Assembly (NCBI GenBank): GCA_963514005.1
Contig: OY740802.1
Location: forward strand, 25,668,001-25,732,000
Direction: 5' to 3'
Source of the DNA: Raja brachyura
Taxonomy: Eukaryota
Length of the DNA stretch: 64,000 nucleotides
Positions within the stretch are counted from its first letter, which is position 1, and each line of letters starts with the position of its first letter. Below are positions 16,801-35,274 of the stretch, piece after piece. The notes below the pieces were generated by a model, which was not told the origin of the DNA, made no database searches, and worked only from the letters and a program-made list of their open reading frames with translations. A program made the position numbers and the translations under genes.

Positions 16801-18776
16801 CGGGCTAGTAAAAATCACCTCTTATACCATCCACTGTTCTGACACCGACTTATGGCAAAGACCCAAATTGCTTCTCAATTGGATCACAACGCCATTCCAC
16901 ACACTGTCCTCAAATCCAATCAGAGATAATTTCAAAGTAGCTGGGAAAGTGGACACTCATTTTGCCTCTGCACAACTCAGTTTATTGAGGCAGGATTCAC
17001 GTAGAAAGTAAGTACGGAAATGTACAAGTGCCTAATGGCATTTCACAGAGATTAATTCCAAACAAAATAAAGCAAATCAGTGCCAAATGATTTTGGTTTA
17101 AAAGCACAGTGTAGGCTTGTTCTTTTGATGGAAGCCGTATTATTTTAATACCTTGTGGATAAAACATATATAAAAGAGTTTTGGCTGCTGGAAAGGTCAG
17201 ATCAGGAGTGAACATCCTAAACCAGGGGCCATCAAGGGGGAGGGAATGCGGACACAAGGAACTGTGGACGCTTGTTTATTTAAAAAAACGACAAAATGCT
17301 GGAGTAACTCAGTGGGTCAGGCAGCATCTCTGGAAAATTATTAATAAGGGTGTCAGGGGTTATGGGGTGAAGGCAGGAGAATGGGGTTTAGAGGGAAAGA
17401 TGGGTGACATTTTAAGTCGGGACCCTTCTTGAGAGAGTTTAGTTTAATTTATTGTCATGTGTACCAAGGTACAGTTAAAGGTTTTTGTTGCATGCCAACC
17501 AGTCAGCGGAAAGACTATACATGATTACAATCAAGCCGTCCACAGTGCACAGAAACTTGATGCAGGGAACAATGTTGAGTGCAAGATAAAGTCCAGTAAA
17601 GTCCAATTAGAGATAGTCTGAGGGTCTCCAATGAGGTGTACAGTAGTTTAGGAACACTCTCTAGTTCTCGATAGGACGGTTCAGTTGCGTGATAACAGTC
17701 AAGAGTTTAATTGTCATAGGTACCGCCAAAGGAACAATGAAATTCTTACTTGCTGCAGCATAACAGTCTCATACATATATATATAAAGCACTTAGATAAT
17801 ATATAATGAACAAAACTTAAGTTCAATGAAATAATAACTACAACACGTGCAAAAACATACTTTTGAGCAACAAGACAATCTATAGAAGTTTTAGAGTTTT
17901 GCGTGGTATCCAATCAGATGGAATACTATAGATAATTCAAGCCAAACTCAGGTACAATAGGTTGAGCAACGGGAGGATACCGAATGCAGCATATAGTTCC
18001 TAGTTTTTAGCGTAGCACAATGTCTTTTGTTCCATAGACAAAGCCCAATGTCCTCAATAGGGTGGAGGTGTTGTGTAGTGTACAAGAGGCTGCTGGTTGT
18101 TGGGATGAAGCTATTTTTCAACATGGGGCCCTTACTAAAAAAGCCAAATAGGAGCTGGGATGTATTTTTACCCGGAGAGTGGTGAGGGTGTGGAACTTGC
18201 TCACCAGGGAGTGATTAAGGCAAAGAGGTGCGACTGGTAAAGCCGTTGCCTCACACCGGCAGGAACCCGGGTTCAATCCTGACCCCGGGTGCCGTCTGTG
18301 TGGACTTTCCACGCTCTACCCGTGACCACGTGGGTTTTCTCCGGGTGCTCCCGTTTCCTCCCACATTCCAAAGACGTGCGCGTGTGTAGGTTAATCGTCT
18401 CTCTAAAATTGTCCCTCGTGTGTAGGGAGTAGATGAGAAAATGGGATAAGGTAGAACTAGTGTGAACGGGTGATCGATTGTCGGCATGAACTTGGTGGGC
18501 TGTATCTGTATCTTTCAATCAATCAATCAATTAATTAATGGCAGCTAGTCAGGGGAGGGGGAATCCATGGCGCCCAAGGTAGTAAGGGAATTTCAAAAGG
18601 GTCTCAGTGAGAGAAGAGAAAGGGCAAGAGTGGATAGGATTAGTGAGTGGAGGGCTGTGTGTTGTGGGACGTCACTGGGCTCAGTGCTCAGTCCCAAACA
18701 CTAATGATTTGGTCTTAAATATCGTTTTGCAAAAGGTAGTCAGAGGTCCAGAAATTCAAAGATAAGAAACACTTAC

Positions 18777-18854
18777 CTCGTCGTACCCGAAAATGGCCGC
18801 GTAGAAGTTTTGCGTCATAATTCGTATGTGTTCCTTCAACACTCCAGATTCAAT
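18777..18854 (-). CDS. UQCC1: UQCC1 coding exon (IESGVLKEHIRIMTQNFYAAIFGYDE)
   Basis: 78 nt, phase 0/0. Acceptor gtgctcctcag|ATT and donor GAG|gtaagt. FYAAI.GYDE motif, in frame with both flanking exons. Confidence 0.95.
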
Positions 18855-21299
18855 CTGAGGAGCACCAACAGAACCGTGAATGAGCATTGTGCAAAAGAGA
18901 GTAGACTGAGAAATGTGGGCCACAGCAAGTTACAAGGGCATCCTTAAGTGGTTTGGTTACCGCCATTAGCCTGGTGACTTATATCATGAAGAAAGATACA
19001 GAGTGCTGCAGTTACTCAGTGGGTCAGGCAGCACCTTTGGAGAACACGGATAGGTGATGTTTCGGGTCAGGACCCTTCTTCGGACTGATTGTGGGGGTGC
19101 AGAGGGGGGGGGGGGGGGGGGAAGGTGGAATCTGGAAGGGAAGACAAGTGATAGGTGGGTACAGCTGAAGGGGTCTGAGTGACAGATGGGTGGACATATG
19201 CTGGAGATGAAAAGACAAAAGGGTGTGAGGTAAGGAATACAATGTGGCGCCAGGAGAAGGGATATAGTTGGAAGGGGATGGGGGTAAAGGAATAGGATTG
19301 TGGGAGAACTGGGTACGCATCCAGGTGGGGCACAGGGAAGAGAGGGGAAGGGGGAAAAGGGTGGAGGCGTTTAATTGTGGGTTACTGTCTTGCATTATAA
19401 ACTGCTCAAACTTGAGCCTGGACCAGTTGGGTAAATGACCTGATTCTGATCAGTATATTTTGTATAATAAAACAAAAAAACCTCACAAAATGCCGGAATA
19501 ACATCAGGACAGCAAAGTGGCGCAGGGGTAGAGTTGCGCCAGAGACCAGGGTCCGATCCTGACCACCCGTGCTGTCTGTATGGTGTTTGTACGTTCTCCC
19601 TGTGACTGTGTGGGTTTCCTCTGGGTGCTCCGGTTTCCTCCCACATTCCAAAGACATGCAGAATTATAGGTTAATTGGCTTCTGTTAATTGTAAATTGTC
19701 CCTAGTACTAGGGTACAGTGTGATCGCTTGTCGGCGTGGACACGGTGGGCCGAAGGACCAGTTGCTGCGCTGTGTCTCTAAAGTCTAACTCAGTGGGTCA
19801 GGCAGCATCTCTGGACAACAAGGACAGGTGACGTTTCGAGTCGTGACTCTTTTTCAACTATTTCATATAATAGTTATTTTTCACTTTATTGCAGCCCTCA
19901 GTCACTTATTTCATCCCCCCCCAACCACTACACCCTGCCCCGGCCCTTTTTCCATTAGGCAAAACAAAGGCACACTTGTGTACTTAACTGGGTGAACTAG
20001 AGAGGCAACACAGAGGTCACAGATGCTTCAGAAATCTGAGTCAACCCAGTTTGCATATATTTCAGACATGGCCAGATGAAAGGTGGTGTTCAGAGTTGAG
20101 CGTAAACGCAGTGAATGAAAGGCTTTTACCATGGAGGGATTGCTACAACGCTCCTCACGGAATGTCTTTTCCTTGCTAGAGGAAAAACAAATGTCAGTGC
20201 TCTTAATCCTTGGATCCATTTCAAATCGGACCAATGTCAGCACCTCCTTGTTTGCCTGCAGATCTTCCATCATTGCTCCCAAGGCTTGTGAGGGATTGTA
20301 AATTAGAGAGACAGTCCTTGGGGATGAGCTGGATGGTGTTGGTGGTTAGCATGCTGACTGCTCCTTGCTGTAATGTGACCTTCCTTTCCCATTGATTTCC
20401 TTTGCCTCATTCTTCACACTTTCCCTCTCTCCAGGATATTAAGCTTCTTGCCCAAGGATTTTTCTCGAGGTAAAAAAACACCCCAGTTTAGTTTAATTTA
20501 CTTTAAACATACAATCGGAAACAGGCCCTTCAGCCCACCGAGTCCGCACCAACCAGTAATCCCACACATGAGGGACCATTTACAATCTTTACCGAAGCCA
20601 ATTGACCTAGATACCTGCATGACTTTGGAGAGTGGGAGGAAACCAAAGCACCCGGACAAAATCCATGCGGTCACAGGGAGAAGGTTCAAACTCCGTACAG
20701 CACCCGTAGTCAGGATCGAACCTGCGTCTGAGGCACTGTAAGGCAGCATCCCCACAGCTGCGCCACAGTTTACAGATAGTTTAGCGATAGTGCAGATAGA
20801 CCCTCCAGCCCACCATTCTGCACTCTGTATCTCACCCTTTGCTCTACCTATTGTACTTTATTGATTTTATTGTACTAGTATATAGTATTATGTGATCTGA
20901 TTGGATAGCATGCAATACAAAACTTTTCACTGCACCCCAGTACATGTGACAATAATAAACCTGAACATAAATAGACATACTTCAGCAGAGAGCGTGTGGA
21001 ATATGTTTCAGGACAAATAGTCATGGGGTTGATACAGTGGTAGGATGTGTAATCTACTGAGCTGTTTGCTAAAGTGCACCAGAACTTTACACAGGGGCTG
21101 GGCTGAGTTAACAGGAAGGAATATAACCAGCTTAGGTTTAGGTTTTCCGTGAATATTGATGCAAAAGAAATATCCGCTTATCAGGCAGCTGAGTGTGATT
21201 TTTGGACTGCTCCCTGTCACCAGGAGGTGCTTCCAGGCTTTCAGAGTGGATGTGGACTGCATTGGTTCAGCAACTGCAAAGTAACTCTCCTGTGTAGGA

Positions 21300-21520
21300 A
21301 GGACATGCAAATGCTGCTTTCCACTGAAGATATAGACACAAAATGCTGGATTAACTCAGCGGTTCAGGCAGCATCTCTGGAGAAAAGGAGTAGGTGACGT
21401 TTCGGGTCAAGACCCTTCTTCAGACTGAGAGTCGGGGGAGACGGAAACGAGAGACAGGGAAATGACAAAGAACAAATGAATGAAAGGAATGCAAAAGGAC
21501 AAATTAAAGCCAGCAACACA
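21300..21520 (-). mobile_element. Penelope-like pLTR, representative of dozens of copies in the window
   Basis: Recurrent unit gacacaaaatgctggagtaactcagcgggtcaggcagcatctctggag...gtgacgtttcgggtcgagacccttcttcagact. Longer copies run toward the PLE ORF end at 13560-13900 and 18995-19390. Many occur as inverted pairs (7045-7430, 22075-22325, 36640-36895, 44585-44880, 56240-56450, 60770-60960). Confidence 0.75.
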
Positions 21521-23373
21521 CTCTCTTATTCCTCTCCAGGCAGTACCATGGGATGTTTTACTTCCATCAGAAAGGCATATTCAATCTCCACAAACTTGTC
21601 CACACCGGCATACACACATGATAATAGGTGGAATTTGTCGCTGGACTTGTGGAGGTAAACATTTTGGACTTTTAGGAAAAGCTGGATGCCTATGTAGCAG
21701 GGAATGGTCGAGGAATCATGCTGGCTGGATTAATTAAGATAACCTTATCGACTTGGGCGGCACAGTGACGCAGGGGTAAAGCTGCTGCCTCACAGCGCCA
21801 GAGATCCGGGTTCGATCTTGACCTTGGGTGCTGTCTGTGTGGATTTTGTACGTTCTCCCTGTTGCCACGTGGGTTTCCACCACGTGCTCCAATTTTCTCC
21901 CACATCACAAAGGTGTGTGGGTTTTGTACGTTATTTGGCCCTTTGTAAGTTGCCTCCAACGTGCAGGGAGTGGGATAGTGTGGTACTAGTGTGCGGGCGA
22001 TCGGTGCAATCAGTGGGCCGATGTGCTTGTTCCCACGCTATATCTCTAAACTAAACTGAACTAGAAACAGAAAGATACACACAAACTTCTGGAGTAACTT
22101 CTGGAGCAGCATCCCTGGAAAAAATGGACAGGTGACATTTTGGGTCGGGACCCTTCTTCAGCGCCAGTACATAGTCTATATTAGTCTAATGTGGACAGAG
22201 AGATCGAGAAGGGCCCTGACCCGAAACCCGAAATGTCACCTGTCCATTTTCTCCAGGGATACTGCCTGACCCGCTGAGTTACTCAAGCATTTGGTGTCTA
22301 ACCTTCGGTATAAACCAGCATCTGAAGAAACAGAAAGAGTTGTTTTTCTATACGTCTATAAGCAGGCTGCCTGCGATGCCCCAGAGTCAAACTCCACTTG
22401 GCCAGTGCTTCAAGGGTAAAACTGCTGCCAATTAAAAGCAGAGCACAAGGCTGAAGCCCTGGCCTCTGGGATGGGTGCTGTGCCTTCTGATGCCGATTGC
22501 AGCAGCTTTTGTCCATCTGTCTGTGAGGGAACATACAGCTTCAGTTCTCCCCTCTCTTCCCCCTCCCCCTCCTTCCATCCCACGTTGCTTGGAGCAAGGG
22601 AGCAGTGGCAGGCTGGAATATATTACAAGCTGAATGCAAGCAGTAGCTAAAGTGCCAGCCTCCAACAAGGAGGAAAAACATTCCCTCATTAAATAAACTG
22701 ACAAAAAAAAGTCGTAGAAATAAAACAACATAGCGCCAGCTCTTAAAAGAGAACCTAATTAAATAACATTCTTTTAACCCCTGCAGTAATTGGTTGAAAT
22801 GATGGCTTTCAGCACTCAACTGAAACATCTAAACCCTTCAGGATGAATGCACTACTGAAGTGATAGAGCTATACTGCCTTTGGCTTTTCAATCAAGTCCC
22901 AGTTTATCCACATTTTATGAGACTGAGGAAAATCGGCATGTCTCCAATGCCTTTTACAGATGCACCATAGAAAGCACACTATCGGGTTGCCTCGCAGCTT
23001 GGTTTGGGAACAGCTCTGCCCAAGACTGCAAGAAATTGGAGAAAGTTGTAGATGTAGCCCAGTGTATCACACAGACCAGACTCCCCACCACTGGCACCAT
23101 CTACACTGCATGCTGCCCTGGGAAAGCAGCCATCAACGACTTGCCCCACCCCAGCCATCTCTTCTTCACCCCGCTGCCATTGGGGAGAAGGTACAGAGGC
23201 TTGAAAGTGGCAGACTCAGGAACAACTTTTTGCTGTTGTCAGACTTCTGTATGTTCGACGTGGACTTGATGGGTCGATGACCATAAGACATAGGAGCAGA
23301 ATAGTAAGATTGAATGAGAACTTACCAAGTTTGAAGGTTGATCTTTATTTCATGAGGAGTTGCGGTGAGGGAT

Positions 23374-23408
23374 TTCGTGAAGAGCCCGCCGGCACGCATG
23401 CGCGACAT
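23374..23408. repeat. DIRS inverted terminal repeat, 3'-end copy (35 bp)
   Basis: ttcgtgaagagcccgccggcacgcatgcgcgacat is the exact reverse complement of 28536-28570. Confidence 0.93.
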
Positions 23409-23523
23409 TCTTCAAAGCAGCGGTGTGGAATCACAGAAACAACAACAGAAATGACTTGGCATAGTAAGATTTAAAGAGACTCTAATTACCAGCTGAAGAT
23501 GATCGAGGGTTGGGAGCGGAGGG

Positions 23524-23637
23524 CACGAAATCCCTCACCGCAACTCCTCATGAAATAAAGATCAACCTTCAAACTTGGTAAGTTCTCGTTCAATCTTACT
23601 ATTTCATTTCGGAGTCACGTGAGTGACTTCGTGAAGA
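23524..23637. repeat. DIRS internal complementary region (ICR)
   Basis: Reverse complement of the left end (23301-23379, 1 mismatch) joined to the reverse complement of the right end (28561-28596). This reproduces the circle-junction sequence caatcttactATTtcatttcgg. Confidence 0.95.
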
Positions 23638-23783
23638 CTTCAAAGCTTCTGTGATTACACGCCCTGGACAACGTCCATGCGGACACACCACTAGCAAGGA
23701 TGGCTTGGAGTAAACAAGTTGATGAAACGAGGTTATACTGAAACAGAAAAAGATTTATTAATAACACCACAAATAACGCCCTT

Positions 23784-24857
23784 TCAATCAGGGACATCCC
23801 CACGTTCACACCCGGCGTTCAGCACGGCCTCTGCAAACTGAAGGGGAGCAGCAACAGGCTTATTATAGAAACGCTGGAACACAGCTTCATTCGCCCATCC
23901 TGCTGTGGCGAGGATATGGTCCATGGGTACCTCCATGACCCTCGCCGCCGACGTAGATGCAGCCCTGGTGGAGTGGGATTTAAACACATTAGTGTCAATA
24001 CCTGCCTTAGCCAGGACGATCCGGAGCCACCTGGATATCGTCTGGACTGTCACTCGATGGTGAGGTCTTTTGTGAGTGACAAGCAGGTACAACTCCATTC
24101 CTCTGATGCTCCTCGTCACCTTGATGTAGTAACGGATGTGAGTGGCTAAACATAGCCGAGCATCTGCAGGGTATGCCGGGAACTTCAGCTGCAGCCCTGT
24201 GCACCCAGGTCTATGCTGCTTAAGTAGCTCATCGATGAAAAAGACTACTTCTCCAGGGGTCTACGTCATCCTGTCAATACGTAGTTTGTGGAGCGTCTGA
24301 ACCCGCTGTGCTGAAGTCAGCGCTAGTAGCATCACCAATTTCATAGTGAGTTGGTCCAGCTGTAACCCTTCCATGGGTGACCACGACCTGAGCAGGGTAA
24401 GTACATCCCTGACATCCCAGGTGAGGTTGTAGCGTGGTGTAGGCGGATTCAGATTGAATATTCCCCGCATAAGCCTGGACACTAGCCTGTTCGATCCTAC
24501 CTCGATGTTGAGGTAGAATGATAGCGCACTCCTGGCGCTGTTGATGGCACTATAACTCAAGTGCTCATCATGGTGCAACCCCGCGAGGAATTCCAGGACG
24601 TCGGCTATGGAGACATCGTCATAGGTGATGTGAGAGCGACTGCAGTAGGCTTCCCACTTGGTGATGTGGGAGAGATATCTCCGCCTGGTTGACTCTCGAC
24701 ATGATGCTCCAATGGTGTTCATGGTCCGGGTGGTAAGGCCATACTGCATCCATGGCCTGGTCAGAACCTGCAAGCCAGTAATTTTAGATACGCATGGTGT
24801 AACTCCCCTGAGACAGGGTGAGAAACCACATGCGGGCAACCCTCTAGAGGGACCCAA
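23784..24857 (-). pseudogene. DIRS ORF3 tyrosine recombinase interrupted by one in-frame TAG (24261-24263)
   Basis: The track ORFs 24261..24857 and 23784..24119 are in the same frame, and the gap between them reads open apart from this TAG. Catalytic motifs are present: AQRVQ (R), LLKQ (K), HSTR (HxxR), AGW, and FQRFY (Y). Confidence 0.93.
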
Positions 24858-26764
24858 GGTTGACTAATCATGTCAGAGACCACCGGATACCAAGGCTGTG
24901 TAGGCCAGTCGGGTATGACAAGAATGCCTCTGGCAGAATCCATCCTGATTTTTTGTAATACCCGACTGATGAGGCAAAACGGGGGGAATGCATAGAAAAA
25001 CCACTTCCCCCAGTCTAGCGAGAATGCATCAATCGCTAATGCCCCAGGGTCTGGTTCCCATGAAACATATGTCGGTACCTGATGGTTCAACCGGGACGCA
25101 AAAAGGTCGATATCCGGTTGGCCAAATTTGGCTGTAATTTGGGCAAATATTTGAGGATGCAGCATCCACTCAATACTATCATTGAATTTGCGTGACCTGG
25201 TGTCTGCCACAGTATTAAGCCTACCTGGCAAATAGGTGGCTGAAATCCAAATATCTCGATCAATACACCAGCACCAAATAGTATTAGCCAATTTGTCACA
25301 AGAGACTGACCTGGTACCGCCCATATGGTTTAAATATGCCACCGCTGTGGTGTTGTCTATTTGGAGACGGACATGAGTACCACTAAGATGAGCACAATAT
25401 GCCCGCAGTCCGTGAAATGCTGCAAGCAGCTCCAAATAGTTAATCCCTTGTATTAGCAACATGCTAGCTTCAAGGGGATCCCACCTGCCTCCACAACTAG
25501 AAGAGCTGTCCGCAGCTCCCCAGCCTAGAGAGCTTGCGTCAGTTTGCAAATATACCACCGGATTGGGCACAACAATGGGTTTGAATGCCCTGCCAATATT
25601 GGACACCCACCATTGTAGCTCAACCTTAGCATCAGAAGGCAGCTCCATAGGTCTGTCAAAATGACCAGCGTTCTTTTTTAACGCAATAATTTTGGCCCTT
25701 TGCAGGTTTTGATAATGCAAAGGCCCAAACCGGGCTGCCGGAAATAAAGCTACGATTTTCCCAATTATCTTAGCTGTATACCGAATAGATGGTATACTGG
25801 CGGATGCGAGATCCTGACATGCAAGGGAGACATCCTCCACCTTGTGAAATGGAATGGTGGACCTCATTTGAATAGAGTCCACCGTGAAACCCAAATAATC
25901 CATAACCTGGGATGGGTGAAACTTCGATTTTTCTGGATGAACTATAAACCCCAGTTGCTGAAATATAGTAACAGTTGCTGAAACAGCGCTTTCAGCTGCT
26001 TCCAGAGTATTGCCAATAATCAGAATATCATCCAAATAAGCCATTACAATATGATGTTCTATGCGTAATTTGGCCATAATAGGTTTAAGTAATTTAGTAA
26101 AGAGCCTAGGGGCAGTAGTAAGCCCATTTGGTAAGGCTCGATATTGCCAGAGCTGATCCATCCAGACAAATTTCAAAAATTTCCGGTGATGTTTCCGGAT
26201 GGACACTGAATAGTATGCATCTTTTAAATCAATACATGCCATAAAGCAACCATGCGAAATCAGTGATTTGGCTGTCTCAAAGGTGTCCATTTTGAAATGT
26301 GTATATGTTACAAAGGTATTCAACTGGGTCAAATCAATAATTACCCGACAACCTCCATCCTTTTTTGGTCTAGTAAATATATTGGAGACGAATTCAATGG
26401 GCTCGTGAATAGTTTTCTCTATCACGCCTTTTTGTTCCAAACGAAAAATTTCAGCCGTGCCTGCTGCCTGCTCAACAGCAGACAGCGTAAACTTCCGTTT
26501 AGGCATATGCTGGGATGGAGGAATGTTGCCGTGAATAAATTCAATAGAATGACCCCGAATATTTTGTAAAACAAATTTATCCGAAGTAACTGATACCCAA
26601 GCTTTAGCAAAGAACCGGAGTCGCCCTCCCACATGTGAGATTAAAGGGGCAGGGGAAAGAAACCCAGACCGCCTTACCTCCATGGTCACCGGCGGTCCCT
26701 GACATACTTGGGTGGCCGAGGAGGTGCTGGGTTGGGCTGACGATAAGATGGCTACATCTTCCAC
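24761..26764 (-). CDS. DIRS ORF2: reverse transcriptase - RNase H - DNA N6-adenine methyltransferase-like domain
   Basis: Intact 667-codon frame. RT motifs IDLKDAY, LPNGL, YLDD; RNase H motifs TDAS, INYLEL, DNTTA, ADTRSR; MT-like motifs DLFAS, DAF, YAFPPF. The first ATG in frame is at 26683. Confidence 0.96.
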   Translation of the reverse strand: MEDVAILSSAQPSTSSATQVCQGPPVTMEVRRSGFLSPAPLISHVGGRLRFFAKAWVSVTSDKFVLQNIRGHSIEFIHGNIPPSQHMPKRKFTLSAVEQAAGTAEIFRLEQKGVIEKTIHEPIEFVSNIFTRPKKDGGCRVIIDLTQLNTFVTYTHFKMDTFETAKSLISHGCFMACIDLKDAYYSVSIRKHHRKFLKFVWMDQLWQYRALPNGLTTAPRLFTKLLKPIMAKLRIEHHIVMAYLDDILIIGNTLEAAESAVSATVTIFQQLGFIVHPEKSKFHPSQVMDYLGFTVDSIQMRSTIPFHKVEDVSLACQDLASASIPSIRYTAKIIGKIVALFPAARFGPLHYQNLQRAKIIALKKNAGHFDRPMELPSDAKVELQWWVSNIGRAFKPIVVPNPVVYLQTDASSLGWGAADSSSSCGGRWDPLEASMLLIQGINYLELLAAFHGLRAYCAHLSGTHVRLQIDNTTAVAYLNHMGGTRSVSCDKLANTIWCWCIDRDIWISATYLPGRLNTVADTRSRKFNDSIEWMLHPQIFAQITAKFGQPDIDLFASRLNHQVPTYVSWEPDPGALAIDAFSLDWGKWFFYAFPPFCLISRVLQKIRMDSARGILVIPDWPTQPWYPVVSDMISQPWVPLEGCPHVVSHPVSGELHHAYLKLLACRF

Positions 26765-28377
26765 TGGGGTCGCTGTGTGCCTGACCCTAAAAAAGACCGC
26801 TGCTGCTGGCCCTGTTGGTAGTAGTGCTGAGTAGTAGCATATGGTCTTGATGCTGATGCGACCGGACCTCGCGGTCGAGCAGGGGGAGCTTTTGGCACCA
26901 TCGGTCTGGGGGCGATCTGAGATCGCATAAGTCCCACCGTTTTGGCTACCTCGTCCAGCTCCTTGACCCTCTTCGGAAGGTCTTCCCCGAAGAGTTGTCG
27001 GGGCGGTGGGGGCGGCGGTGGCTTACACAACCCAGCAAATTTTGGGTTGATAGACGGACGGATGCTGTTCTTCCGGAAATCGTTGATTTCATGCTGGGTG
27101 GCACATAATAGTGCTAACGCATCCTCCTGATCCAATGACAGGTCCGTTCCATCGACCGACCGCGCAAAGGCGGTAATACCGGCCGTGAGGAGTTTGAGGA
27201 TCCGCTGGAGTTTAACCTCCTGATGGCGGACAGCCACGCCGATGTTGCCCCATATGGGCGTATTGACCAGTGGCACGTTGAGGGCATTACAGTTGGACGG
27301 GGCCTTGTGGCGCTGAGTGGCCTGTGAGAGTACTTCCTCCTGCAACCGATGATTCGTGAGAAAGTCCACTGTTGCTGCCAGCTTTGGCTGGAGCGGAAGT
27401 CCAGTTGTAATTGGTGCAGCAAATTTGGCTGCCACGTCCAGTAACTCAGCTGTCGGTGGCTCCGACGGTGTTGGGGTGGGGTCAAACCCTTCTTCCCCTT
27501 GTGGCTCGCTGATGAGGGAAACCGGCGAGGTGGCCCTGTGCCTGACGATATCCGTGGGTGCGTACTGCTGTTGATTATGGAGTACCAGCTCCAGCAGCCG
27601 CTCGATGCGGTCAATACGCCCCCCATCCTGAACACTCGGATGGTCGGAGTCCTCCGGCTCAGAAAACATGCCGGGGCTCCTATCATCGGCCCGCACCTCA
27701 GAGAAGTGATCTCGGTGCCGGAATGGATCGCTTTCGGCCGCCGCAGCGAAACCGTGCGAGTCCCGCGCGGGCAAGGTGTCCAACCGCCTCTTCCTGGCAG
27801 GAGTAGAAGCCGTTGCCACAAAGGGCCCTGACGGCTTGGGGTCGACTCCAGCAGAAGCATGGAGCGACGCCCGCGCGGGCTTGCCGGCTGTCCACAATTT
27901 GGACGGTGCCGACGCATGGTCTCGTCCACCCATCCATGGGGGACTCGGCGACCGAGGCGGGACCGTACCCAAGCCCCCCGTCCCGGCAGCGGGGGTTGGG
28001 AGTTGGATAGCAGACCTTAACGACCCAGGTCCCGCCGTTGCACCAGACCGCTCCATGGCGGCTGGTGGAGCCTTGGCCCGAACCGGGTTAGGCTTACGGG
28101 CTCCTCTGCTGCCTTTTAATGAAGGGCTAGCGGAGGGGGGTCGGGCCGCAGCACGAGACCCCTTCCCCGTTGTCGCCAAAGGCGAACTTGTGGCAGGGTC
28201 CACCCTTTCAGGAGGCACCCCGACGTCCTCCTCCACGCACTCCTCCTCGGAGCTGTGGCGACTCAGCGGGTCCCGACCTGCAGCAGCAGATGGCAATGAT
28301 TTCCCCGCTCTCTTCCCGGCCCCAGGTGTAACCGATGAGGGCGCCGGGCCGGTCAAACGACGACTTCGTCCAGACAT
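26752..28377 (-). CDS. DIRS gag-like ORF1 (~540 aa from ATG 28377)
   Basis: Intact ORF with a low-complexity Pro/Ala/Ser N-terminus. The C-half is DIRS-gag-like (P.NC...VP.VN..IW, DALALL, LFGEDL) and ends SFLG. Confidence 0.8.
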   Translation of the reverse strand: MSGRSRRLTGPAPSSVTPGAGKRAGKSLPSAAAGRDPLSRHSSEEECVEEDVGVPPERVDPATSSPLATTGKGSRAAARPPSASPSLKGSRGARKPNPVRAKAPPAAMERSGATAGPGSLRSAIQLPTPAAGTGGLGTVPPRSPSPPWMGGRDHASAPSKLWTAGKPARASLHASAGVDPKPSGPFVATASTPARKRRLDTLPARDSHGFAAAAESDPFRHRDHFSEVRADDRSPGMFSEPEDSDHPSVQDGGRIDRIERLLELVLHNQQQYAPTDIVRHRATSPVSLISEPQGEEGFDPTPTPSEPPTAELLDVAAKFAAPITTGLPLQPKLAATVDFLTNHRLQEEVLSQATQRHKAPSNCNALNVPLVNTPIWGNIGVAVRHQEVKLQRILKLLTAGITAFARSVDGTDLSLDQEDALALLCATQHEINDFRKNSIRPSINPKFAGLCKPPPPPPPRQLFGEDLPKRVKELDEVAKTVGLMRSQIAPRPMVPKAPPARPRGPVASASRPYATTQHYYQQGQQQRSFLGSGTQRPQWKM

Positions 28378-28535
28378 TTCCAAACACTCCAAACCGCACC
28401 CTTGCTGAAAGACAAAACCGACAGCAAGGGCCAACCAACTTAAGGTTAGTTTAACTTACCTAAGCGGCTCCTTTTGAAGGGCTGGCGAGGAGCGCGCCCC
28501 ACCGCCAGCTGTCGGCAGCAATGCGTTGCGACGAT

Positions 28536-28570
28536 ATGTCGCGCATGCGTGCCGGCGGGCTCTTCACGAA
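28536..28570. repeat. DIRS inverted terminal repeat, 5'-end copy (35 bp)
   Basis: Exact reverse complement of 23374-23408. It contains an NRF1-like GCGCATGCG, and an E-box TCACGTGAC is adjacent. Confidence 0.93.
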
Positions 28571-29844
28571 GTCACTCACGTGACTCCGAAATGAAATTAG
28601 GCCATTCAAGCCATCGAGCCTGCTCCATCTTTGGACTATGGCTGTTTATTTTTCCCTCTCTCTCCTGTCTTACCCCTTTCTCCTGCCTTCTCCCGGTAAC
28701 CTTTTGATACCCTTCCCAATCAAGAAACTATCAATCTCTGTTTTCATAATACCCATTCAGGGTCTGCTTCCATGCTGTATCTCTAACTAACCAACCATAA
28801 ATCCATAATGCCAAGATCTAGAATTAAAGCAAACCTTCACCCAAATCAATGGCACGTCGTCCACAGATCCATCGAACATTCAAACTATGTGTAGGAAAGA
28901 ACTGCAGATGCTGGTTTATACTGAAGATAGACACAAAGTGCTGGAGTAACTCAGCAGGTCAGGCAGCATCTCTGGAGAAAAAGGACGGGTACCATTTTGG
29001 GTCAGAAGCCCATTTTCAGACTGAAAGTAGAGGAGAGGGGGAACTGGAGGTAGGAGAAGGCCAGAACAAATCAGGGCCGGCAACAGATGACCAAGGAAGG
29101 GTGGAGCCCACAATGGCCCATTGTTGGCTGGTTCGCAGCCAGCGATGCAACATTTAAACTATTTGGATTTTAAAGGAAAGGTGTCAAAGGAAAACTGCTT
29201 GTCATGATACATTTTGTTTTGAATGAATGAATGTTATATTAAGGTGGTAGACACAAAGTGCTGGAGTAACTCGGTGGGACAGGCAGCATCTCTGGAGAGA
29301 AGGAATGGGTGACGTTTTGGGTAGAGCCTTCTTCAGACTGATTACTCCAGCATTTTGTCTCCGCTGAGTTACTCCAGCATGTTGTGTGCTGCTGAGTTAC
29401 TCCAGCATCTGCAGTTCTTTCTTATATTAAGGTGGAATTGACCCTTTAAACAGCATCAAGAGCAGTCTGGTAATGCACCTGTTCTGACAGTCAACACGAT
29501 CGCTGTTGTTCTTGGACCTTAATCCCTCCCCTGCCCAATCCAAATATTCCCTGAACATCCAAACGTACATCAACTCAGCCTTGAGTTTAACAGCAGCGTC
29601 CTCAACCCTCAGGGAAAACCATAAAATCTATACAAACCAGCTTTGTCTCCAATCAGTTGCTGGCAAGATCCTGGAACTCATCATTAAATACTTGGTACGA
29701 GCACTTTAGAGTTTTGAGAGATACTGCGCGGAAACAGGTCCTTCAGCCCAGAGTCCGCGCCGACCAGCGATGTGCACTAGCACTATCCAACACACTAGGG
29801 ACAATTTACAATTTTACCAAAGCCAATAATCCTACAAAGCCTTA

Positions 29845-30455
29845 AGGGCCTGACCCACATGGCCGTCACTTACGCGACAGGCCGGTAGTGACTGACGCGC
29901 GACGGTCACGTGCGTCATCATGCGTCCGCTCAGCCCACCGGAGCGCGTGACGTCATTTGAAGATAGACACAAAATGCTGGAGTAACTCAGTGGGACCAGC
30001 AGCATCTCTGGAGAGAAAGAATGGATGATGTTTCGGGTCGAGACAATCTGAAAAAGTGTCTCGACCCGGAACATCACCCATTGCTTCTCTCCAGAGATGC
30101 TGCCGGTCCCGCTGGGTTACTCCTGCATTTTATGTCTATCTCCAATCGTCTTGGCCCCGCTCTGAGGGTAGGATCCGCAACGGCCGTGAGCCCCAGGCCG
30201 AGCTCGGCGATCGCTTGCCTGCTTCTGCTGGAGGCAAGATGTTGTGCCGTGCCAGGGTCTTGGCCATGTCCCACTTTCGCCGTCAGTTACGTGACAGGCC
30301 GGTGGTGCGGGAAGATTTAGTGCAGGACGAAATCCTGGCATGCTGCGCGCAACTCCACTCTCCTCCACGCCACTCCATGCGCCCGTCCCACGCTATCCAC
30401 ACGCTAGCAGGTCGCGTAAATGGCGCGCGAATGATGTCCAAGTGGGACAGGCCTT
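29845..30455. mobile_element. PIF/Harbinger-type MITE nested in a SINE and carrying a pLTR palindrome
   Basis: TIRs AGGGCCTGACCCAC / GTGGGACAGGCCT with TTA/TAA flanks. CpG-rich. Its left end is homologous to the copy at 53092. Confidence 0.75.
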
Positions 30456-32089
30456 TAACGCTTTGGAGCGTGAGATGAAACCGGAGAACATACAAACTCT
30501 GTAAAGACGGCATCTGTAGTTAGGATCAAACCTGGGTCTCCGGTACTGTAAGGCAGCAGCTCTACCGCTGCGCCACTGTGCTGCCGTTCCGCTATGCCAC
30601 GTCTAAATCACAAAACAGTTAGGTAAACGTATTGTAGCTTCACAAAGGAAAGTCTTGTTTGACAATTCTAACGTTGACGTCACACTTCCTGACAAGAATG
30701 AATTTGCATTGAATGCCACCTTTCTCACACTGTCTCCTCCCATTTAATAGTTACCAAGCATTTGCAGAAACAAAGAGCAGTGTAAATTGTGCGAGCAAAA
30801 TCCCACACCCAGCACTAAGGGATGAAGGAGTTCAGTTGAGCGGCAAGACATGAGAAGCTGGGGTTGATTTCCCTGGAGCAGAGAAAGCTACAGAGAAATT
30901 TGTGAATTATGATTAAGGGGTCTAAAACAGAGCAATATAGGGATAAACTATTTCCACTGGCAAGAGGTCTGGTAACTAGAAGATACTTGGAAAATTGTAG
31001 TTTGAAAAAGAGCCACTGAATATTCTTTTATATATTTTTATATAAGCACAGATTTGCTCAAAACCAAGTGCTGGAGGAACTCAGCGGGTCAGGCAGCATC
31101 TATGGAGAGAATGAACACACAACGTTTTAGGTCGGGAAGATAGGGCACAAAGTGCTGGAGTAACTCAGCGGGTCAGGCAGCATCTCTGGAGAAAAAGGAT
31201 ACGTGATTTTTCGGGTAGGACCCTTCTTCAGAATCCTGGAAAGAGCCCAGAGAGGATTTATGAAGGTGTTGCCAGGAGGTTGGGCAGGCTTCGACTTTAT
31301 TACTAGGAGAGCAGGAGAATAACGATGTGGATTTTGGGTCGGGAGACTGAAGTAGGATGAGAAGGCATAAGTCTGAAGAAGGGTCTCGATTCGAAGTGTC
31401 ATCTGTTCATTCCCTCCACAGATACCGCCTGACCCGCCGAGTTCCTCCAGTGCTTTGGGTTTTGTCATGACTGCAGCATCTGCAGTTCCTTGTATCTGTA
31501 GATTTGCTCAGCTGGATAGCACCACCGGAAAGGGCAGCAGGTATGGACGTAGGAGTATATTTCAAAATAAAGACATAAGGAACTGCATATGTTGGAATCT
31601 TGAGCAAAACACAAAGTGTTGGAGTGACTCAGCGGCTGAGGCACCATTGGATAATTGAAACAGTAACTGGCACGTGTACGTTTTATGCTTGCTGGGTTAA
31701 AATATTCAAAAACAAGTTTCTGAGCTGGAGCCAAAAGCAAAGGAGACACAAGTACAGATGCTGGAATCTTGGGCAATACTAAGTGCTGGAGGAACTTAGC
31801 GGGTCAGGTAAGATCTGTGGAGAGTATGAGCATGCAACATTTCTGGTCGAGACCCTTCTTTAGAGTGAGAGGAGCAGGGGGAAGAAAGCTGGAAACAAGA
31901 GGTAGGGGGAGGACAAAGCCTGGCAAGTGATGGGTGGATACAGGTGAGGGCGGCTGATTGGCAAATGAGTGGAGTTAGTGACAAAAGCTAGAGGTGTCAA
32001 GGAGTCAAAAAAGGGCATCAGATAAGGAGAGAAGAGAAGAAATAAAGTGTAAAGCAAGCTAGAGGGAGGGATATGGCTGATTGGGGTCG

Positions 32090-32360
32090 AGGGTCGGGGA
32101 GGTGGGGAATGGGAGAGAGGAAAAGAGAGCACGAAAAAGAGGGGGCGGAATGGAAAAGAAGGGAGCGGGGAGGGAAAAGGGCGGGAAAGAGCGGGGAGGA
32201 AAAGAGGGGATGAAGAGGAAAAGAGGAGGGGGGGAAGGGAACAGGGAAGAATAGAGGGGAGAAAATAGTATGAAAGAGAGGAGAAGAGCAGTGACTGGGA
32301 AGGGGTGGGAGATGGAGGGCAGAAATAGGTGGAAGGGGTAAAACTGGAAAGGGGGCGGGG
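32090..32360. repeat. Polypurine low-complexity tract
   Basis: Almost exclusively G/A on the + strand. Confidence 0.8.
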
Positions 32361-35274
32361 TTAACATTTGAAACAAAACCTCAACGGAAACAAATCGGAT
32401 AAATGACCCAAAGTTATTCTGCAGTCTTGATCAATCTCACAGCTTTCCTTTCTTGAAAAAAATGCGCAGCCTTAATGAAACTTGACTAAAATAGTTGAAA
32501 GCGCTGACTGAGGTCAGGAGCTCTTTGTGGTGTTTACACAGCTGTGTCAATTTTTCGATTCTCAAACTTCAACCAGTTGAGCCCAAGCTCCCCTGATTAA
32601 TTCAAAGACGTGCAAGCAAGAGGGGAGCCTCTTACCAAGAGCTACGGTAAGCGTTTTATCCGCGCCTCAAATCTCCACATTTGATGACCTAAATTCAAAC
32701 AAACATTAGCTATCTAATAATGGTTGCCATATGTGTGCTGTTGAATTGCAGTCTACACTGGCATGAGGGTTTTCACAAGAACGTCTCAGTAAAGAGCAAT
32801 TTGGAAATTTTCTTTTAAAATCCCCACTTTCAAAAGGGTCAGGGCAGCATCACTGGAGATCCTGAACAGGGAACGTTTTGGGCCAGGTCCCTTTTTCAGA
32901 CTCAAGGATCCCGTCAGAGAAAAGGGAGCTTCTTCAATGTAGGCATACCTTGAGGTGATTTCGCAGTGGAGCTGTAAAATTGAGAAACAAGGAACTGCAG
33001 ATACTGGTTTACAAAAAAAGGCACACGGTCCTGCAGTAACCCAGCGGGCCAGGCAGCTTATCTGGGGAATATGGATAGGTGATGGGTTGGGGCCCTTCTT
33101 CAGATTTGATACATCATGTATCCATGTCGTTCAGACATTGCCTGATCAGCATTAATAGGCTGCGGGGATTATTAAGACAGATGACGGCCACAAGAAGCTG
33201 GAGTAAAGCTCAATGGGACAGGCAGCATCTCTGGAGAAAAGGAATAGGTAACGTTTCAGGTCAGCACCCTTCTTCAGTCTGAATGATAGAGATGTCGAGT
33301 TCTGGCCTTATCTACCTTTCAGTCTGAACTAGGGCTCCAATCCGAAATGTCATCTATTCCTTTTCTCAGAGATGCTGCCTGCCCTGACCCGCTGAATGAC
33401 TCCAGCATTTTGTGTCTATCTTCAGTATGAACCTACATCTGCAGTTCCTTCCTAGACAGGTAACTTGGCCATTGTTCTAGGTTTTACAGAGCATCACAAG
33501 GGAGGAGAGGTGGGGCAGATTAAGGAGGGATTGCCAGAGTTTAGAGCTTTGGTTGCAAGTGTGTCAGTGAATATTTGGGATTATTGTACATACATGGGTA
33601 GAATTGAGAGAGTAGAAAGAGGGCATCAGGAGATTAATGAAGTGGGGTGGGAATAAGCTCATGGAGGGAAGATAAGAATTTATGTTTGAACAGGGGGCAG
33701 GGTCTTACTGCCCAGAAACTATCCCTTCGGCCCAACTCATCCATGCCGACCAAGATGCCCCATCTAAGATAGTCCCATTACCCTTGTTTGGCCCATATCC
33801 CTCCAAACCATTCCGAGCCAGGTATTAACGCAACATTTAAGAAACATTTTAGACAGGTACATGGTGGATAGGATAGGTTTAGAGAGATATGGGCCAAAAG
33901 CAGGCAGGTGGGGTTAGTGCAGTTGGGGCATGTTGGTCAGTGCGGGCAGGTTGGGCCAAAGGCCCTGTTTCCATACTATATGACACTATGGCTAGCCATG
34001 TACCTGTTGAAGTGTCTTTTAAATACTAATATAGCATCTGCCTCAACTACTACCTCCTACATTCTTTTTTGTTTTCTCCCCATCTCCTGCCTTTGTCCAG
34101 CGAGCTGCCAATTAACCCCCTCACCTATATCTACCCCACACCTGCCAGTATTTGTTCTGCCCCCAACTTGCTTCTAACTATCTCACCCCACCCCCCCTCC
34201 CGCCATCATTACAATCAGTCTGAAGAAGGGTCCTGACATTAAAATTCATTTATCCATGTTCCCCGGGATGTTGCCTGGCTCGCTAAGTTGCTCTGGCACT
34301 TTATATATTGTCTCAACACCTACATCTTTTTCAGGAGGTGACTGGGGCAGCAGAAATGAGAGTGTTTGGGCACTGGCAGGCACAAGTGAAAAGATTCCTT
34401 TCGCATCTGGGACAATGACTCATATCCAGTTCTGACTAGGGTTGAGGGATCTCCTCTGAGAGCCATAGGAAAGTGATGGAAAGGTAATTCTAATCCAGCT
34501 CCTGTTGGGCATCCGTCCACAAGACTAACTGCCCATAATTTGGCGCCTATGGTCAATTTCACTCAGCGAGGCCATAGAGATGGCTGCTGTGGGAATTGAA
34601 AAACATTCCAGACTTTTTAGACTCACGAATGTGGAGGAATGGAGGGAACATCCAAATTGCATCTGACATTTACTAAGCGTTGCATCAGGGAGTGCTAGAA
34701 CTGAAAATGGAAGTGCGTTCTCTTTTACATCCCTCGGCTGAGTGATACCTAAAATAAATTTGAACAAGTTCACTGCCATTCCAAGTTGGCAGAACAATAA
34801 GCGGCCAAGTTAATGTGGACGTAAATAGTCCCATGTTAAGACAAAGCTGCACTGTTTGGTGCTCGAGGGAAGGAACCATTCAGAATGTCTTGGACCATAT
34901 GCATTTGACCTGCAGCCCAGTGATGGGGATGTTGCAACTGGCCTATGCTCATTTCTGAGCCGTTGAGGCATTGACTTCATATCAATCAAATTAAGTGTCT
35001 CCAGTTTTTTTGCAAAGGCATTTTATTGCCCATGTACACACGTGTATAAACTAACTTAGAGTTGCTTTTTCCAGTGGCACTTGTCAAGTTTTGCTTTATG
35101 TACCTCAAGGCCTCCCAATCCATCGCTCCTTGAACCCACGTCTGTTTACTCAGTTGATTAGAATGGTTGATCAGAAAAGCAATTTGCCAAACAAGTTTGA
35201 GTGGTGTGTAAAGGGAGGTTATTTCTCAGCTGGGGATTGAGGAAAGTATTTGGACCAGAGTCATACTACCTCGC

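Follow-up and report, generated by a model that had tools for sequence, protein, structure and literature searches.

Evidence for an optional intron spanning the reverse transcriptase frame, and for a putative frameshift leader, in a DIRS1-like element of Raja brachyura

The window (the whole 64,000-nt stretch of Raja brachyura DNA analysed here) contains a DIRS1-like element in which the pol frame is very probably spliced out as an intron, as argued by splice sites that keep their phase across diverged families and by genomic copies joined exactly at the predicted junction. A leader produced by a -1 frameshift from gag is likely to lead into both enzymes, the reverse transcriptase (RT) and the tyrosine recombinase. 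We consider the best explanation to be the combination of the two, and hold it to be fairly probable: removal of pol would yield the recombinase, and both enzymes would be reached from gag by the -1 frameshift, not from an ATG.

Architecture of the element and state of the window copy

The element measures ~5.3 kb and lies on the minus strand (28597-23300), its ends having been set by alignment with 20 sister copies (98.5-99.6% identity), which were fetched from the 40 best matches. In the aligned copies ATT is present at both element ends, and the flanks vary from copy to copy. It belongs to family A, which is young and has matching places in the genome at n=629; seven further families (B-H; 60 loci, RT roughly 55-80% identical) were recovered from the genome with protein queries. 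The main features are as follows.

23300..28597, minus strand: whole DIRS1-like element
28536..28597, minus strand: left inverted terminal repeat, inverted match to 23347-23408 (87%)
23347..23408, minus strand: right inverted terminal repeat, partner of 28536..28597
23524..23637, minus strand: two internal complementary regions (ICRs), with a 3-nt overlap at 23601-23603
28405..28459, minus strand: candidate 5' UTR intron of 55 nt with donor AG/GTAAGT, predicted from sequence only
26686..28377, minus strand: gag-like frame (intact sisters have 563 codons)
23784..24767, minus strand: tyrosine recombinase exon, 327 codons, interrupted in the window copy by an early stop (24261-24263)

The ICR at 23601-23637 pairs with the 5' end of the element at 100%, and the ICR at 23524-23603 pairs with the 3' end at 98.75%; a separate repeat search gave a pair at 99%. 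Searches against Pfam placed RVT_1 (PF00078, E 9.5e-21) in pol, together with a Dam methyltransferase match at the pol end that is below the cut-off (PF05869, E 0.0054); close homologues have PF05869 or PF12237. The downstream frame contains Phage_int_SAM_4 (PF13495, E 5.6e-07, above the cut-off) and a weak match to Phage_integrase that is below the cut-off (PF00589, E 0.001), a domain present in most of the 120 homologues listed. The element thus has a tyrosine recombinase in place of a DDE integrase, and by its repeats and domains it is a DIRS1-like member. Elements of this type are described as having gag, RT/RNase H/methyltransferase (RT/RH/MT) and recombinase frames, inverted terminal repeats, two ICRs with a 3-bp overlap and ATT ends (PMC3266345). 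Split direct repeats, a trait of Ngaro and PAT elements, were not found, the terminal repeats being inverted. In the 5' UTR of families A-G a GTAAG donor is found at a comparable position, and a probe of family D found no copies without the 5' UTR intron.

In the sister copies gag reads past 26754 and ends 2 nt upstream of the ATG at 26683. The window copy itself is dead, with premature stops in gag (26752-26754) and in the recombinase (24261-24263); the same positions are open in 20/20 and 19/20 sisters, respectively. This inactivity had been missed in the original prediction made on this DNA.

Splice sites around pol and intron-less copies

The proposed excision of pol depends on the following sites.

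26672..26680, minus strand: 5' splice site GAG/GTAAGG, phase 0, GT at 26677
24768..24787, minus strand: 3' splice site ...TTGCAG/G, in phase 0 with the recombinase and lying across the final pol codons (A-C-R-F-stop)
24768..26677, minus strand: predicted optional intron of 1910 nt that takes in almost the whole of pol (RT, RNase H and a putative Dam-like methyltransferase)
24966..25000, minus strand: competing pyrimidine-rich AG behind a P-P-F motif, in phase, with a stop 33 codons later

The original prediction had proposed a donor directly behind the first ATG of the RT frame (ATG GAG/GTAAGG) and an acceptor just before the RT stop, both in phase 0, and these are indeed present: the ATG is at 26683, the GT at 26677, and the acceptor reads ...CTAAAATTACTGGCTTGCAG/GTT with its AG at 24769-24768, the pol frame ending at 24761. 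The recombinase beginning MEVLTRPWMQY, which had been claimed to follow from removal of ~1.9 kb, was reproduced upon in silico excision of the 1910 nt, and keeping this segment leaves a 640-codon RT frame whose first Met is the ATG at 26683. The pyrimidine tract of the window acceptor is modest, and the rival AG upstream of it (24966..25000) falls in the stretch that houses the acceptor of other families. Among the 20 sisters the donor is kept in 20/20 and the acceptor in 19/20, with a joined frame of 329 codons in 17/20; since these copies are ~99.5% alike, their conservation was not counted as evidence, and diverged families were therefore examined.

All eight families of this genome have YTGCAG/R at the same spot at the pol end, and a phase-0 AG/GT donor some 11-18 codons upstream of the first conserved RT motif. 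A search of public collections with an RT alignment returned 85 loci in 47 clusters, the recombinase alignment being too loose for scanning collections; viral contigs gave no match when scanned with one protein, and one locus, which has no recombinase match, when scanned with an alignment. The donor was tested in 37 families (the eight own-genome families and 29 clusters, with 18 truncated or anchor-less clusters left out), and splice sites were scored by simple match to the consensus. The best donor was confined to a single phase in 30 families and was in phase 0 in 27/30, compared with 177/480 (37%) for phase-0 best donors in control windows inside RT; of the three exceptions, one is a copy with a frameshift, one has a tandem donor and one is a locus in which no recombinase was matched. 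A phase-0 donor matching at least 7/9 consensus positions was found in the linker of 31/37 families versus 39/681 RT control windows. The linker in which the donor sits is unalignable, and the phase is nonetheless kept.

For the acceptor, 39 families were tested (family G and 15 clusters were dropped), and a phase-0 acceptor with an open recombinase frame behind it was found in 39/39, having been relocated three times. The conservation check across related families that the original prediction had called for came out in favour of its intron reading for both sites. In 23/39 families the AG is located directly behind the methyltransferase P-P-F motif; with this type of acceptor no stop interrupts the recombinase frame along the 91-94 codons up to the first conserved motif (23/23), and the Ser at the P-P-F site is coded AGY in 23/25 cases versus 24% in the rest of RT. 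In 15 of the remaining 16 families that stretch is interrupted by stops, and in 14 of the 16 a phase-0 CAG occupies the downstream position used in the window; in the last two the acceptor moved separately, by three codons in one and to 48 codons before the motif in the other, both in phase 0. The families with the downstream-type acceptor form one clade in a quick tree, the input of which includes the few trait columns (SH-aLRT 100), and therefore count as one switch. All p-values for donor and acceptor are overstated because the families are related by descent, and those for the acceptor contingencies also because there was one switch event, because Ser AGY codons change slowly and because the F-P-P-F codons impose a pyrimidine tract. 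The observation that the frame opens exactly at the acceptor in 9/9 TAG-type sites was tautological and was discarded. The rival upstream acceptor is present in five families, and in 11/43 families the open recombinase frame has no Met before its first conserved motif.

A degenerate probe for the joined junction of families A-D matched 89 places in the genome (control 0), all of family D type, for which there are 1411 intact, intron-bearing places; when the spacer was left free over 0-60 nt, the joins were exact in 53/53, with 0 near misses. The joined junction of the window's own family A was found at 0 places versus 629 intact ones, none of the 89 was of family B or C type, and a probe for families E and F found none. 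In seven contig sets aligned to the element no joint at 24767/26678 was present among the joints listed; these contigs look like DNA and carry no information on splicing. In the copies that were fetched (40/89), gag is joined to the recombinase at the predicted junction; 39/40 extend to the family 3' terminus, 4/40 retain the 328-329 codon frame from the ATG, and the 5' UTR donor is still there in both copies that could be read to their 5' end. Two copies, L219 and L220, group by diagnostic sites with intron-bearing copies and not with the main intron-less lineage: upstream 63 sites favour the former and 0 the latter, the last of them being 3 nt from the junction, and downstream the counts are 5 and 1. 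On the downstream tree a single clade of intron-less copies was rejected (p-AU 0.011); the corresponding test upstream was at odds with itself, with a likelihood 327 lower but a p-AU of 0.452, and one further copy (L250) looks recombinant. Two origins of the intron-less D copies are thus probable from these comparisons.

Donor and acceptor have AGGT in common, a 4-nt junction microhomology, and a template-switch deletion would therefore give the same junction. Such 4-mers occur at 22/3600 nearby position pairs, and these copies often carry internal deletions. The presence of two lineages with one predicted junction and no near miss leads us to favour splicing over template switching. In keeping with the first of these, DIRS-1 reporter RNA that has been spliced is reported to be reverse transcribed and integrated, with RT working in trans (PMC7192593).

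The gag-pol boundary and alternative readings

Three features at the end of gag bear on how the two enzymes may be reached.

26788..26794, minus strand: slippery heptamer U UUU UUA, in frame with gag; slipping back by one nucleotide here would lead into pol
26678..26794, minus strand: transframe segment of 39 codons in the pol frame, ending M-E, predicted leader of RT and recombinase
26681..26683, minus strand: ATG set in ACC ATG G, either a Met within the protein or a secondary initiation codon

The U UUU UUA run is located 37 codons upstream of the ATG, and the pol frame is open from there. An in-frame heptamer ahead of pol was found in 29/37 families, with the pol frame open from the heptamer in 28/29 (for families B and G an alternative copy was scored, the first having a local indel); with respect to frame, the heptamers were in the gag frame in 29 and in other frames in 4 (n=33). 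The forms seen are U UUU UUA/C and A AAA AAC; most are U UUU UUA, and four are A AAA AAC. No hairpin beginning 5 nt past the family A heptamer exceeds shuffles in strength (z 0.2), which counts against the frameshift, and over the 29 families z averaged -1.7 and was at or below -2.5 in 13/29 (mononucleotide shuffles). In families E, F and H gag and pol share a single frame, the heptamer is absent and the donor is kept. The same holds for a D subfamily: there, and in the intron-less copies derived from it, the U-run has two bases fewer, and gag is thereby placed directly in the frame of pol or recombinase. Use of the U-rich site as a second acceptor is unlikely, as UUUUUUA is followed by G in only 17/29 families and the heptamers of the other 12 are not of this form, so that the motif is not simply an acceptor; a probe for the 5' donor joined to the U-rich site found no genomic copy, which is a weak negative.

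The original prediction had combined the intron with a single start codon serving both enzymes. The intron part stands, with its conserved phase and 89 exact joins, and the start codon part is weaker and fails as a general rule: an ATG two codons ahead of the donor is confined to families A-D of this genome, which are one tree branch, the B/C-type motif has TTG in 311 places versus ATG in 2132, and the transframe segment from slippery site to donor contains a Met in 9/29 families and none in 20/29. Conservation of the motif TRA-CC-ATG-G in four families hints that the ATG is used to some extent, maybe by re-initiation. From these patterns a shared leader consisting of Gag plus a short transframe segment appears more likely than an ATG start, with the shared-ATG arrangement probably a local feature. 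The ATG would then be an internal Met, serving in families A-D as a secondary start at best. The Met at 24749 was also considered as a general start of the recombinase and was rejected, being specific to family A and absent in the other seven own-genome families.

The splice might be real and both RT and recombinase nevertheless start at the ATG at 26683, reached either when ribosomes restart behind the gag stop, 2 nt before it, or on another spliced RNA, in which case the products would be free proteins beginning M-E-V-R and M-E-V-L. Such starts fit the optimal ACC ATG G right behind the gag stop in families A-D, the retention of the ATG in 629, 2132 and 1411 places, and the 329-codon joined frame running from it in 17/20 sisters, and they could coexist with the frameshift route. 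They are difficult to reconcile with the 311 places with TTG, with families E-H, which have no such ATG, with the 20/29 families without a Met between heptamer and donor, and with the donor being retained where gag and pol are in one frame; the missing join of the 5' donor to the U-rich site weighs in the same direction, if weakly. We therefore regard the ATG as an unlikely general entry point for the two enzymes.

Very improbable is the possibility that there is no functional splicing, with translation of the recombinase beginning at its own Met or following a frameshift at the pol end, the sites maintained by protein constraint and the intron-less copies arising as microhomology deletions. 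The Met of family A, 7 codons past the acceptor and 11 nt behind the pol stop, would suit this, as would the 4-nt microhomology and the frameshifting proposed for the Ngaro recombinase (Poulter and Butler 2015, quoted in PMC13003380). That Met is private to family A, however, and 11/43 families lack any; donor phase is kept in a linker that cannot be aligned, and two separate intron-less lineages share one junction without near misses. Equally doubtful, and perhaps slightly more so, is a splice that mainly lowers RT output, as self-limitation or host control, with the recombinase fusion incidental and the enzyme made otherwise. Splicing would indeed take out nearly all of pol, and the rival upstream acceptor of five families would yield a dead-end product, but an off-switch needs no frame, whereas phase 0 and the open recombinase frame have survived three relocations of the acceptor.

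Expression model and comparison with known systems

In the preferred reading, with pol removed by splicing and gag left by frameshifting, one promoter would give rise to both unspliced and spliced RNA. The unspliced RNA would be the genome template and encode Gag and a Gag-transframe-RT/RNaseH/MT protein, and the spliced RNA would be translated into Gag and a Gag-transframe-recombinase. Because it keeps both ends and the ICR, spliced RNA may sometimes be reverse transcribed in trans, and could in this way found non-autonomous families.

Retroviruses express pol by a gag-pol -1 frameshift, at U UUU UUA in HIV-1 and at A AAA AAC in MMTV-type sites; their Pol includes the integrase, and gag too is lost when env is spliced. 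The DIRS1-like families resemble them in that gag ends with heptamers of these two types, in a predicted transframe peptide and in a pol that would be removed as an intron for the benefit of a downstream gene; they differ in that gag, upstream of the donor, would stay in the message, that the downstream gene is the integration enzyme, and that the element is without env. In the Ty1/Copia elements EVADE and BARE1 a spliced subgenomic RNA yields short Gag (PMC12786077). The likeness lies in the single promoter, with unspliced RNA as genome and pol message and spliced RNA for a second product, whereas in the element described here the splice would swap the RT cassette for the recombinase behind the same leader. 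In Ngaro the recombinase frame likewise overlaps the pol end in the -1 frame and needs a special access route, for which a frameshift within the overlap has been proposed; the route suggested here is splicing plus a frameshift at the gag/pol boundary, and the inverted terminal repeats of the window element contrast with the split direct repeats of Ngaro.

The DIRS1-like elements of PMC3266345 likewise have a pol/recombinase overlap, and share other architectural traits with the window element, but the available text of that paper describes no pol-removing splice, gag-pol slippery site or intron-less derivatives, and contains neither 'intron' nor 'translat'. Overlapping frames are described in PMC9210276 and PMC3783388, with no mention of 'intron' in the available portions, and those of PMC9341512, PMC8226300 and bioRxiv 10.64898/2026.05.21.726589 held nothing further on the topic. 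The literature check recommended in the original prediction thus returned no report of DIRS pol splicing in the literature searched; an earlier remark in the main reviews or in Repbase is possible.

The DIRS recombinase overlaps pol, often without a start codon, and the route of its expression is unsettled in the literature searched, where frameshifting in Ngaro was the sole proposal found for such a recombinase in the texts available. A conserved splice that drops RT would be an answer that is testable with existing RNA-seq. On balance we lean, by a narrow preference, towards a two-switch code across animal DIRS1-like elements, in which frameshifting would set Gag versus Gag fusion and splicing RT versus recombinase; the recombinase would be a Gag fusion, the ~90-codon overlap of pol and recombinase would mark the acceptor, and RT-less families would be fossils of the spliced message. 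The model predicts a Gag-recombinase fusion, would change the annotation of the abundant DIRS elements, would account for a class of RT-less copies, and would give the host a splicing handle on the balance between RT and recombinase.

A candidate intron in the 5′ UTR

Upstream of the gag ATG, the element in the window carries a further candidate intron:

28405-28459, minus strand: candidate short intron with a strong donor, AG|GTAAG

The strong AG|GTAAG donor was present in families A-G (L063-L118), 110-145 nt from the 5′ end of the element, and in families E, F and G it is doubled, with two donors in tandem. A probe based on family D found no copy lacking this candidate intron.

Subfamilies varying at the gag/pol boundary

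In a family D subfamily of intron-bearing copies (L264, L265, L269 and L272), the U-run is shortened, which places gag and pol in a single frame; a downstream acceptor was not found in these four fetched copies by the motif used. The ATG before the donor is replaced by TTG in a young subfamily of family C (L075-L078), detected by motif at 311 places.

Insertion sites and genomic arrangement

Several young sister copies (L038, L039, L045-L048 and others) had similar flanks, with a GGTGAGTCTCTGGA-like sequence before and a CACAGAAGG-like sequence after the element, which suggests a preferred target within another repeat. The flanks of the window's element (18000-34000) are dense in a dispersed SINE-like repeat, with 13 copies of a 71-nt core. 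Regularly spaced DIRS copies on contigs C901 (L002-L005), C14 (44.58-45.05 Mb) and C1 (0.73-0.76 Mb) of the genome under study probably sit inside tandem or segmental duplications. DIRS-type RT loci were also seen on bacterial MAG contigs (L202-L207), most likely as contamination from the host animal.

An RT-less family of intron-less copies

The intron-less copies constitute an RT-less, non-autonomous family with at least 89 members in the genome (for example on contigs C1, C2 and C5). One of the 40 sampled copies (L218-L257), L235, also lacks nearly all of gag, through a second deletion with ends not located at splice sites. Most sampled copies share a premature stop in the recombinase, and hence the RT-less family kept spreading without enzymes of its own.
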